64,000 nt of DNA, from positions 4,829 through 68,828 of the forward strand of contig CANRDB010000001.1 of NCBI GenBank assembly GCA_947629315.1, in the 5' to 3' direction. Shown one piece after another: positions 21,123 through 23,301 of the stretch. Made by a program: the position numbers and the translations under genes. The number at the start of each line of letters is the position of its first letter. The first letter of the stretch is position 1. The notes beneath the pieces were generated by a model. That model was not told the DNA's origin, did no database searches, and worked only from the letters and a program-made list of their open reading frames with translations. The DNA comes from an uncultured Bacilli bacterium (GTDB lineage: Bacteria > Bacillota_I > Bacilli_A > RF39 > UBA660).

Positions 21123-23120
21123 TTGAATCAAAAAAGAGTGGCATTATATCTACGATTATCCAAAGAAGATATCGACAAGCCAACCAAGTTCTCTATCAGC
21201 GAAAGTATCAAAAATCAAGAACTATTACTGCGTGAAGAAGTGAAAAAACACCCTGATTGGGTCGTAGTAGCTGTCTATTCTGATGAAGACTTTTCAGGAG
21301 CAGGAACTTATCGACCAAGCTTTGACAAAATGATTCATGCCTGTGAAAAGCACATGATTGATATCATTCTCTGTAAAAGTCAGTCCCGTTTTTCTAGAGA
21401 TATGGAATTAATTGAAAAATATATTCATAACAAATTTAAAGAATGGAATATACGATTCATTAGTATCGTAGATAATGCCGATACTGATAACGATGGCAAT
21501 AAAAAATCTAGACAGATTAATGCTCTTGTCAATGAATGGTTTCTAGAGGATTTATCCGATAATATTCGGGCAACTTTACGAACAAAATGGCAGCATGGAG
21601 AATGTACCGCTGCTTTCGCTAAATATGGATTTCTAAAAGATCCCCAACATAAAAATCACCTAATCATAGATACGGTTGCTAGTCAAACCATTCAAGAAAT
21701 TGCTCATCTCTTTTTAGAGGGAAAAGGTCCAGAAACCATCGCTCACATTTTAGAACAGAAGCATATTCCTAGTCCTTATGAATACAAACTACAAATGGGA
21801 AGTAAACTAAAAATTCCTTTGCTTTCCTTAAACCATCCAAAAATAATTACTAAAAACGGAAAATATATTTTTACCCTTTTTCCAAGTGGAGAACCAATAG
21901 ACCATGTCGTCCTATCCATCCTACCATTTCAAGATTACGATATGACACTAACTCTCATAAAACAAAGTGGCAATGTAAAGGTTTATTATTCCCAGGAGAA
22001 ATTCTCTTCTGCTATCGAAACCGTATTGCCGGTTGAACATTCTTCATTTTGGAGACAATTGCCTATCAATCTTTCTATTTCTCATATTCAACTACTGGCT
22101 ATCTATTGTCTTCCAAACAATTTAGAAAAAACTTATTTAGAATGGGAAATAAACATCCATACCCTACCGTCTCATGATTTTTCTTTAAACATCCAATCCT
22201 TTGATGCAATACACCAACCAATTGATTTTTGGCAGTATCGAATCAGAAAAAAATATCAGTGGAATAGTCGGACAATCTATCACATTTTGAAAGATGAAAC
22301 TTATCATGGTACCTTAATTCAAGGAAAAACAAAGCGAATCAGTTATAAAAATCATACTAGTATTGCTACTCCCAAAGAGCAATGGTATGTTCAAGAAAAT
22401 ATTCTCCCTAAAATTCTAGATGATCAAACTTGGATAGCTATTCAAAATAAATTACAACTACATCCACGCGCAAGCAAAAATGGAAAACACCCTATCTTTA
22501 CTGGAAAAGTTTTTTGTGGAGTATGTGGAAAACCTCTTCAAAAAAACTCGAGCAGTTCTCTTGCTTCCCCTGTTAAAAAAGAATATTTAATTTGTAAAGC
22601 AAGAAAAGAACATTGGAAGAATTGTGAAAACAAAAAATCATTTCCCGTTTTAGAATTACAAAAATTAATCATTACTCAATTTCAAAATTTATGGAATTCC
22701 TATTACGATATGACTACCTTAAAGCAGATTCATAAGGAAGAACCCCATCATCAAACTATAGACGATCTCATGAAAGAAGAACAAAATTTACAAGAAATTA
22801 TCCAGCAGAATAACCAAATTCTTTATCAATTATACAAAGATAAAAGCACTGGCCTCATGGATGATTCTTGTTTTCATACCCTACTTCTACAAAATCAACA
22901 GGAAATGGATACTTATCACCAAAGATTGCAAATGATTGCCCAAGAGTTAAAACAGATTCAAACGAAACAGGAATTTTTCATGTCTACTGTGTGTGAATTT
23001 CTCAATACTCATTCCTTTGAAGACTATTTTTCAACCATTCTACAGCATTTTATTAGCAGCATTTTCATTGGAAAGCTGAACCATCATCAAAGAACAATCC
23101 AAATTCATTGGAAAATCTAA
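21123..23120 (+). CDS. Large serine recombinase (SpoIVCA/CisA-like), TTG start
   Basis: [13 protein letters not shown] catalytic-serine motif, a resolvase N-domain, a recombinase domain, a Cys-rich zinc ribbon (CGVCGKPL...[11 protein letters not shown]) and a coiled-coil tail. RBS aaaggag. Confidence 0.85.
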
Positions 23121-23139
23121 TTTTGTGGTTTATGTCTTT

Positions 23140-23301
23140 GCAGCAACTGGTCCTACGGGGGCAACTGGTGCAACCGGTCCTACGGGGGCAACTGGTGCAA
23201 CCGGTCCTACTGGAGACATTGGTCCTACTGGTGATGTTGGTCCTACTGGTCCTACCGGAGCAACTGAACCTTATCTGTTTGTCAAAATATCCACTCTATA
23301 G
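23140..23301 (+). pseudogene. Collagen-like gene segment lacking a start codon, lying 20 bp after the recombinase stop
   Basis: Frame +1 reads [53 protein letters not shown]. No ATG/GTG/TTG is usable. The last 20 bp overlap the 3' end of the convergent recombinase gene. Confidence 0.5.

Follow-up and report, generated by a model that had tools for sequence, protein, structure and literature searches.

A collagen-like gene of an uncultured Bacilli bacterium is divided by three small elements with probable serine recombinase att junctions

Results

The DNA analysed here, the window, is a stretch of 64,000 nucleotides (nt) from an uncultured Bacilli bacterium (contig CANRDB010000001.1, positions 4,829 to 68,828), and it contains one collagen-like gene (start 18448, stop 29834, in window coordinates) that is cut into four plus-strand pieces by three small elements, E1, E3 and E2. 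An earlier note on this DNA had drawn attention to a motif, TGGTTT…TTTGCA(GCA)ACTGGT, directly 3' of two recombinase genes, rec1 and rec2, and had taken it for their cognate att half-sites. That view of the locus missed a third recombinase gene, rec3 (23282-24796, minus strand), the collagen fragment at 26102-26146 and the 5' part of the gene at 18448-18701. A model with two elements was ruled out by a 10-bp repeat, present at 23257 and 26094, together with rec3.

The first piece of the collagen-like gene, F0 (18448-18701), carries a ribosome-binding site (RBS), an ATG, the N-terminal region, a short G-x-y run and the first beta-type module of ~35 residues, and it ends at the AC (18700-18701) of GGAGCAACTG. 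It is followed by fragment A (23148-23264; 117 bp), which encodes 39 G-x-y residues (GPTGATGAT…GPTGAT), by fragment B' (26102-26146; 45 bp), which encodes 15 residues, and by fragment C (29444-29834), with a long G-x-y run, a C-terminal module that agrees with intact members of the family, and the stop codon TAA (29832-29834). Among the four pieces, only F0 has an RBS and ATG, and only C has a stop. The collagen codon string GGTCCTACNGG is matched 22 times in the window, against 0.01 matches expected, in three clusters (23149-23258, 26112 and 29463-29815). Exact copies of GGAGCAACTG are situated at 18694, 23257 and 26094, and the copy at 18694 closes a short open reading frame (ORF; 18448-18717, with RBS and ATG), whose product reads MNDEIYQYALQKIECDSQFKP…GSTGPTGPTGPTGPQGPA…ILNFVIPAGAT and then runs through four junk codons (DAMS*) belonging to the element. 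Joining the host sides at AC yields a continuous ORF of 268 amino acids (aa) with family-typical N and C termini, laid out as an N-terminal region, G-x-y repeats, a module of ~35 aa, a long G-x-y run and a second module, and matched by the Pfam family Collagen; once rebuilt, the interrupted gene measures ~0.8 kb. An ORF beginning MNYGATG… at 26086 was also considered as a gene start and rejected, as it is the recombinase-side (P) arm of the E3 junction read in frame.

Each element encodes a large serine recombinase (LSR): rec1 (21123-23120, plus strand, 665 aa, TTG start) of clade R1 in E1, rec3 (504 aa; identified by Pfam) of clade R3 in E3, and rec2 (27831-29420, plus strand, 529 aa) of clade R2 in E2. 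The identification of rec1 and rec2 as recombinases was correct, Resolvase, Recombinase and Zn_ribbon_recom domains being found by Pfam in both, as also in rec3, and the R-L-S-K-E motif is invariant in the LSR alignment. All three genes abut a collagen fragment with their 3' ends, rec3 at the right-hand border of the first collagen cluster. Between stop codon and junction core, 3, 10 and 15 nt intervene in the three elements. The proposed paralogy of rec1 and rec2 also stands, but it is distant (26% identity in the alignment; 31% over 250 aa by BLASTP). The N-terminal 235 aa of rec3 are 53% identical to rec1, compared with ~30% elsewhere, which suggests that a catalytic domain may have been swapped. 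The 5' ends of rec1 and rec3 (21132-21178 and 24726-24772, on opposite strands) form a 47-nt inverted repeat, 83% complementary, and homologous recombination across this repeat would invert fragment A.

E1 (18702-23147; 4446 bp, with boundaries ambiguous within the core AGCAACTG) carries, in addition to its R1 LSR, a minus-strand cargo gene (18743-20977) for a 744-aa protein of the Acyl_transf_3 family (PF01757, E 2.7e-22), 50% identical to the cargo of an R1-type element at the related locus L086 described below. E3 (23265-26101; 2837 bp), whose orientation is opposite to that of E1 and E2, contains its R3 LSR, a 49-aa micro-ORF and a 342-aa minus-strand ORF (24984-26012) with weak zinc-ribbon matches only, all below the Pfam cut-offs. 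E2 (26147-29443; 3297 bp) combines the R2 LSR with a micro-ORF of ~30 aa and a plus-strand cargo gene (26257-27651) for a 464-aa protein that has an N-terminal hydrophobic segment, a repetitive coiled-coil-like region and no Pfam match; neither Pfam nor NCBIfam supplied a family name for the cargo proteins of E2 and E3. A homologue of the E2 cargo (37% identical) travels with an R2-type LSR at locus L001, and ORFs alike in size and position are found at L092 and L093. Between 26440 and 27030, the E2 cargo gene has tandem coding repeats of 21 nt and 15 nt (EAKVQEA…, ETKQ…). The composition profile gave no sharp GC break at the element ends, and an Rfam scan returned nothing within the elements, only a tRNA upstream.

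The ends of the elements could be resolved into six junctions, all read here on the plus strand. The attL of E1 (18679-18725) consists of a collagen-coding B arm, the central AC (18700-18701) and the P' arm TGATGCTATGTCATAAATCACA, which repeats, imperfectly and in inverted orientation, the P arm at 23124-23145. The attR of E1 (23124-23170; site 1 of the earlier note) consists of that 22-nt P arm, TGTGGTTTATGTCTTTGCAGCA, the AC at 23146-23147 and the B' arm TGGTCCTACGGG… within collagen. E3 is bounded by an attL at 23241-23289 (B arm, AC 23263-23264, P' arm TGAACCTTATCTGTTTGTCAAAAT, which overlaps the rec3 stop codon) and an attR at 26075-26125 (P arm ATTTTGACAATGAACTATGGAGCA, AC 26100-26101, B' arm TGGTCCAGTAGG…), and E2 by an attL at 26123-26168 (B arm, AC 26145-26146, P' arm TGCACTCACTTAAAAGTGGCAC) and an attR at 29420-29465 (site 2), in which the 22-nt P arm GTGCCACTTTGAATGGTTTGCA begins with the G of the rec2 stop codon TAG and is followed by AC 29442-29443 and the B' arm TGGTTCTACTGG…. 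Sites 1 and 2 thus have the same composition, a recombinase-specific P arm of 22 nt, a central AC and a B' arm coding for collagen. A core is repeated directly at both ends of each element: AGCAACTG in E1, the 10-bp GGAGCAACTG (at 23257 and 26094) in E3, and ACTG in E2.

The attP of each element was rebuilt by joining the inner sequence of the right end to that of the left end, and its symmetry was scored over 24 arm positions. Complementary positions numbered 18, 16 and 18 of the 24 in the three elements, and this symmetry was equalled or beaten by shuffled sequences in 2, 8 and 0 of 5000 trials. In all three, the best dyad centre falls between the A and the C of …CA-AC-TG…. A general repeat finder independently reported the terminal inverted repeats of E3 (its I2) and E2 (its I10). 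These coordinates predict the attB junction strings CCTGCAGGAGCAACTGGTCCTACGGGG (E1), CCTACCGGAGCAACTGGTCCAGTAGG (E3) and ACGGGTCCTACTGGTTCTACTGGAG (E2), and the attP strings TGTGGTTTATGTCTTTGCAGCAACTGATGCTATGTCATAAATCACA (E1), ATTTTGACAATGAACTATGGAGCAACTGAACCTTATCTGTTTGTCAAAAT (E3) and GTGCCACTTTGAATGGTTTGCAACTGCACTCACTTAAAAGTGGCAC (E2). The left arm of the E1 attB, TTTTGTGATT, resembles the E1 P arm; this likeness was dismissed, not being kept in L086.

The letters common to attL and attR are only CAAC at L001, only ACTG in E2 of the window and only AC at L003, and these overlaps together pin the crossover to AC. The crossover was AC in all of the ~15 junction pairs examined, and every target was a collagen-like gene. 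In each insertion, the element has entered a Thr codon at its AC, inside the string (G/C)CA-AC-TGG, which codes for G-(A/P)-T-G-(P). The P arms, 20-24 nt long, are specific to the recombinase clade. The target GGN(C/G)CA-AC-TGGNCC is an inverted repeat around a non-palindromic centre, because the collagen codons for G-(P/A)-T-G-P read almost alike on both strands, and as an attB such an inverted repeat would suit a dimeric serine recombinase.

Several details of the motif as first described have to be amended. The string at site 1, TGTGGTTTATGTCTTTGCAGCAACTGGTCC, is present and begins 3 nt past the TAA (23118-23120) of rec1, but it spans 23124-23153, starting 2 nt ahead of the position 23126 given before; the string at site 2, AATGGTTTGCAACTGGTTC, is present at 29431-29449, beginning 10 nt past the TAG (29418-29420) of rec2. 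The collagen codons do begin within the motif at both sites, as had been described. At site 2, the claim that the recombinase and the collagen share one reading frame with zero spacer is right as to the frame, but eight non-collagen codons (CHFEWFAT) stand between the TAG and the first G-x-y triplet, so that zero spacer amounts only to the lack of a frame shift. The common frame itself follows from the fixed 22-nt arm starting inside the stop codon. Read-through from rec2 into the collagen frame was considered and found no support; L001 has the same arrangement.

The alignment of the two sites by a "(GCA)" insertion was mistaken. When they are aligned on the crossover, they share only GCA-AC-TGGT(C/T)C, and the two copies of TGGTTT are not homologous, being 15-20 nt off centre at site 1 and 4-9 nt at site 2. 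TGGTTT is a conserved part of the arm of the R1 clade at site 1 but is not an element common to both sites. Since the P arms of rec1 and rec2 differ, the sites have in common the target and not a recombinase-specific sequence. TGGTTT occurs 63 times in the window, which makes it meaningless alone, and GCAACTGGT occurs eight times, five of these inside collagen fragments, as ordinary Ala-Thr-Gly coding sequence; for these two reasons, the motif string by itself is not the signal. What goes beyond chance is the architecture of the junctions, together with the recombinase-side arms that are kept in other genomes. One might still suppose that the similarity stems from collagen codon repetition or chance and that the recombinases merely happen to lie beside fragments of a collagen pseudogene, a view to which the plain coding character of GCAACTGGT, recurring in fragments, and the 63 copies of TGGTTT would lend themselves. 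It has to contend, however, with three out of three LSRs abutting fragments, with attP symmetry that has one and the same dinucleotide at its centre in each element, with clade-specific arms kept across genomes and with the rarity of a collagen neighbour among distant LSRs (2 of ~75), and we give it practically no credence. The reading of the motif as cognate att half-sites gains support instead, each of the two sites being an attR-type junction with dyad symmetry of the attP and with an attL partner, at 18700 and 26145, respectively. The motif is very probably the attR junction of small integrative elements, each of which encodes its own LSR.

The six crossover sites are all in direct orientation on the plus strand and in the same codon phase. 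This bears on two other arrangements. Several recombinases beside several partial copies of one gene, with rec1 and rec3 facing each other around fragment A, might be taken for a DNA-inversion (shufflon) switch that swaps C-terminal collagen cassettes for surface variation. Yet recombination between directly oriented sites deletes and does not invert, the fragments, likewise all on the plus strand, are successive, non-redundant parts of one ORF, and the enzymes are of the large serine integrase type and not small invertases; such a switch is therefore extremely improbable. In serine invertase and shufflon systems, an inverted pair of sites flanks an invertible segment, and no such pair is found among the six. 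A second possibility is a length-diversifying system, in which deletions between non-cognate attL and attR would give collagen proteins of varied length. As the six sites share AC and codon phase, every attL x attR combination is in frame, and products of 214, 229, 253 or 268 aa are predicted. For an LSR to act, however, both partners normally have to carry its own P-type half-sites, whereas the P arms show no relationship among the three clades, and no such product was seen, so that we regard length diversification as highly unlikely.

Relatives of rec2 (45-78% identical) are numerous in metagenome-assembled genomes labelled Mollicutes, Firmicutes or Bacilli; those of rec1 are 44-48% identical, and many of them carry DUF4368 according to precomputed annotation. 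LSRs that abut collagen genes fall into at least five clades with clade-specific arms, such as TGTGGTTTA… in R1 and GTGCCACTTT… in R2. R2 homologues abut collagen at L001, L003, L086, L006, L092 and L093, and R1 homologues at L086, L088 and L089. The P arm stands at a fixed distance from AC/GT in four R1, seven R2 and three R4 loci: R1 homologues (45-46% identical) keep TGTGG(T/A)T(T/A)A 22 nt from AC, or from GT where the collagen gene is reversed, and R2 homologues (65-78% identical) keep GTGCCAC(T/C)T 22 nt from the centre. The R2 arm starts at, or 1-3 nt past, the recombinase stop codon in every R2 case, and the stretch between its start and the centre, which includes TGGTTT in the window, is not conserved. 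The earlier note had held that its reading would fail if the motif were missing beside homologous recombinases elsewhere; the R1 and R2 homologues do keep their P arms 22 nt from the centre. It had also named abundance in unrelated collagen genes, which is indeed found for the collagen half, GCAACTGGT, but not for the P arms.

At L001, where the rec2 homologue is 76% identical, an element of 3.3 kb with the same gene order is flanked by a 5' fragment of a homologous gene, 100 aa long, and by a 3' part with a BclA_C domain at its end, with the junctions …GGTGCA-AC-TGTATATAGTAAAAAGTGGCAC (attL) and GTGCCACTTTTATATATTTACA-AC-AGGACC (attR). The E2-type element is seen also at L003 (66%), where the collagen gene runs in the opposite direction, at L086, and at L092 and L093 (77-78%), where integrated R2 copies occupy contigs of 3.6-3.7 kb with ends in collagen repeats. 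L086 is syntenic with the window (SecA, collagen gene, glycosyltransferase-2/TPR (GT-TPR) gene, sortase and SerRS; SerRS is 88% and the glycosyltransferase 66% identical to that of the window), and its orthologous gene holds three elements in another order and orientation: an R2-type, an R1-type with the same acyltransferase and an R4-type element. All three have a symmetric attP, the four pieces are open, and the rebuilt ORF of 310 aa is intact. Two elements occupy the gene at L088, and L096 carries a fifth clade (R5) with arms TTACTTTCAC… of 24 nt. From these loci, the arrangement appears to recur across a lineage of uncultured gut Firmicutes.

For control, more distant LSRs (mostly 30-40% identical to rec2) were collected by a metagenome scan with an alignment of the R2 family; of ~75 with a readable 3' flank, two abut collagen, namely L006 (55% identical; R2 clade) and L014, with an R4-like arm. 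A 98-aa query from the 5' segment of the gene retrieved homologues of up to 172 aa, of which 120 were listed. Many are complete proteins of 140-172 aa with the same termini, and at least 14 of the 120 stop right after G-x-T and continue into recurrent classes of junk tail: KKWH is the R2 P' arm read in frame, and two other classes begin with MCHF, which is the R2 P arm. At L098, an intact homologue of 167 aa lies directly upstream of the glycosyltransferase orthologue (63% identical), with no recombinase, and its coding sequence has several GGAGCAAC(A/G)GG and GGACCAACTGG strings; L098 looks like an empty site.

A few observations were made in passing at these loci. On the minus strand of L003, at ~11840-11900, the collagen-like gene is broken within the beta-type module by a stop codon, an RBS-like GGAGTT and an ATG (…VTIREV* … MNNEINYVLDFIIPQG…), which could represent two coupled cistrons or a decayed gene. 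At L089 (11559-18573), a 6.7-kb heavy-metal ATPase block, itself devoid of a recombinase, is separated from the R1-type LSR by a collagen fragment; L096 has a second junction (…GGAGCAACTGCTTCCTGTCAAAAT) at 6960-7010, after a 45-bp collagen piece and with no LSR called in its vicinity; and at L094/L095, from 10330, the DNA beyond the 5' fragment contains no LSR over >10 kb, its genes including those for UPRTase, a permease and an S24 peptidase. These three cases suggest that larger or composite elements may use the same gene.

Short ORFs were also found upstream of the recombinases. In E3, the 49-aa micro-ORF (24768-24917, minus strand) is directly upstream of rec3 and overlaps its start, and in E2, one of ~29-30 aa (MMKVISHFKDNGENLTKVIEELLKNIIQK; 27732-27824, plus strand) lies just upstream of rec2. 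The consensus MK(V/I)xxxF(N/D)xNG(E/K)x(L/I)xx(I/V)(I/M)E(E/Q)(L/F)… is encoded directly 5' of the LSR in clades R2, R4 and R5, with a related micro-ORF in clades R1 and R3, over a size range of 29-49 aa. Further copies are situated at L001 (9904-9993), at L086 (3321-3434 and 9874-9993) and 5' of the LSRs at L092, L093 and L096. Directionality factors of the SprB type are said to lie next to their recombinases, and the micro-ORFs, including those of E3 and E2, are candidates for a directionality factor or a leader peptide.

Discussion

Large serine integrases bind as a dimer to each site, cut its centre with a 2-nt stagger, rotate their subunits and religate the ends. In the elements described here, a recombinase dimer would bind the P and P' arms (22-24 nt) of its own element as well as the collagen half-sites, cleave at AC with a 2-nt stagger, rotate and religate. 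Recombination of attL with attR would then set free a circular element bearing attP, and the chromosome would retain attB, that is, an uninterrupted collagen coding sequence. Precise excision of the three elements would rejoin the four pieces in frame, and all three excisions would be needed for the 268-aa protein. Excision may be regulated and terminal and, like that of skin, SPbeta and gin, may take place in the mother cell during sporulation, with the conserved micro-ORF as a candidate directionality factor. By analogy with those elements, programmed excision during sporulation is plausible, and we put its chances a little short of even.

The collagen-like gene, which is BclA-like and stands next to a glycosyltransferase gene, probably encodes a spore-surface protein; one member of the family has a BclA_C domain. 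The window encodes SpoIIIAH-like, GerM-like and SpoIIIE/FtsK proteins, and the host is an endospore-forming, low-GC Firmicute. A number of points, on the other hand, weigh against the explanation as a whole. The spore-surface role is drawn from relatives and neighbours of the gene. No excision product was found, neither an attP circle nor an attB allele of the gene, the 3.6-3.7-kb contigs L092 and L093 being integrated copies, and scans of genome contigs with GT-TPR and SecA, and of metagenomes with GT-TPR, did not yield an empty site from the same species. A scan of 18300-29900 for sigma-70 promoters and terminators stayed at chance level, the micro-ORFs match no family in Pfam or NCBIfam, and none precedes rec1 in the window. 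Finally, the elements differ in position and orientation among related genomes and their LSRs are more diverged than the host genes; this pattern makes independent, transposon-like insertions plausible and says nothing about domestication.

It is quite possible, if not what we would favour, that the att junctions are as described but the elements are purely selfish and transposon-like, with the gene inactivated and excision unprogrammed. Collagen repeats would then be favoured as a dispensable gene offering many copies of a palindromic target. The variation in insertion position, order and orientation and the divergence of the LSRs fit such a view; so does the DUF4368 domain of R1 homologues, a hallmark of the TndX/TnpX-like clade of multi-targeting LSRs (Durrant et al., bioRxiv 10.1101/2021.11.05.467528). 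Intact, unoccupied members of the gene family are common as well, and neither a sporulation promoter nor a proven directionality factor was identified. Against purely selfish elements stand the spore-forming host and the BclA_C-bearing family member, as well as the four pieces, which are open both here and in L086 and rebuild canonical termini; this last argument is weak, as the insertions could be recent. The conserved micro-ORF, moreover, has the position beside the recombinase that is ascribed to SprB-type factors. All LSR elements described in mother-cell genes (skin, SPbeta, gin and vfbin) are developmentally excised, and their excision requires a small directionality factor (PMC5595907).

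The closest known systems are indeed these sporulation intervening elements (PMC5595907, PMC5499854, PMC4191935, PMC5025042): skin in sigK (SpoIVCA), SPbeta in spsM (SprA/SprB), gin in gerE (GirC/GirX) and vfbin in spoVFB (PMC5595907). As in those cases, the coding region of an endospore former is interrupted by an LSR element whose precise excision would rebuild the ORF; both ends share a short core, and the crossover dinucleotide marks the centre of an imperfect inverted repeat, attP. Unlike gin, with its 31 genes, or elements of prophage size, the window elements measure 2.8-4.4 kb and comprise one LSR and one cargo gene; three LSR clades are found in one gene of 0.8 kb, and the target is a repeated collagen string instead of a unique site.

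The TnpX/TndX transposons Tn4451 and Tn5397 are similar in being small, non-phage elements with an LSR at one end as the only mobility gene, and the multi-targeting DUF4368 clade is similar in using a short target motif found at many places. Among solved structures, the TnpX catalytic domain (2MHC) comes closest to rec2. LSRs of the TnpX/TndX type measure ~650-710 aa and have a C-terminal DUF4368; rec1 has 665 aa, but DUF4368 was not reported in it by Pfam at E <= 0.001, and rec2 and rec3, with 529 and 504 aa, are without it. The central dinucleotide reported for Tn4451 and Tn5397 is GA, and transposons of this type enter many unrelated genes; the window elements, in contrast, cross over at AC, all insertions are in collagen-like genes, and there are no mobilisation genes. 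Another parallel is offered by the heterocyst elements (fdxN with the LSR XisF, nifD and hupL), whose excision restores a gene during terminal differentiation, and some cyanobacterial genes hold more than one such element. These, however, belong to a different phylum and differ in target genes and element sizes, and the three LSRs match the XisF model of NCBIfam at 68-92 bits against a cut-off of 375, so that they are not members of that family; their scores for CcrA, CcrB and CcrC are likewise far below the NCBIfam cut-offs. Several integrase-bearing elements side by side at one gene also recall the tandem arrays linked to regulated gene integrity, in which integration inactivates a gene and excision would restore it (Mageeney et al. 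2020, PMC7192596). Classical arrays re-use the same regenerated att core, whereas in the window each element sits in a different repeat of the gene, with coding pieces of 117 bp and 45 bp between them. The targets identified in that paper do not include collagen genes (the word "collagen" has 0 occurrences). At the locus described here, multiple minimal LSR elements have the palindromic collagen codon string of a single small gene as their target. Full-text literature searches, combining collagen-like or bclA with serine recombinase or with intervening or integrative elements, returned no description of such elements.

If excision does occur, programmed gene reconstitution would extend from large prophage-like elements at unique sites to elements of two or three genes, with a repeated coding motif as the target and three independent interruptions in one 0.8-kb gene. 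The choice of target has a rationale, in that collagen codons offer a natural inverted repeat around a non-palindromic AC. A still wider picture can be drawn, which we advance as speculative and rather unlikely in its entirety: a guild of at least five LSR clades would be specialised on the self-complementary DNA for G-(A/P)-T-G-P in collagen-like spore-surface genes of uncultured gut Firmicutes. Minimal elements, made up of an LSR, a micro-ORF and one cargo gene, would gather in one gene and form a multi-lock mother-cell switch, in which the surface protein could be produced only after excision of every lock. The micro-ORF would be a new and unusually small class of recombination directionality factor, and the cargo proteins, an O-acyltransferase and a membrane-anchored coiled-coil protein, would perhaps act on the spore surface. 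For genome engineering, the elements provide natural LSRs of at least five clades whose attP arms, attB and central dinucleotide could be deduced from sequence, to which the conserved micro-ORF may add a minimal directionality factor. A practical consequence concerns annotation: what appear as short "collagen-like" ORFs in gut metagenome assemblies are in many cases pieces of interrupted genes, and assemblies often break exactly at such interruptions.

Neighbouring features

Directly 3' of the collagen gene and outside the elements, the GT-TPR host gene (29840-30925, plus strand) serves as a flanking anchor; its orthologues follow the collagen gene at L086, L088, L089 and L098. On the 5' side, a SecA-like gene is split into two ORFs in different frames (14652-15368, 238 aa; 15400-18366, 988 aa), with the break at an A-run, AAAAAATGA (15360-15368). 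Its orthologues form a single ORF at L086 (at least 1144 aa) and L096 (1163 aa), and that of L097 is split too; a frameshift, a pseudogene or a sequencing error could each account for the split. The tRNA gene found by the Rfam scan (14452-14525, plus strand; RF00005, 66.8 bits) lies between the GerM-like and SecA-like genes. Further downstream, G-x-y-like runs were noticed on the plus strand at 31697-31858, opposite a 312-aa minus-strand ORF (30961-31899) of no clear family, and copies of GCAACTGGT occur also at 31433 and 38765.

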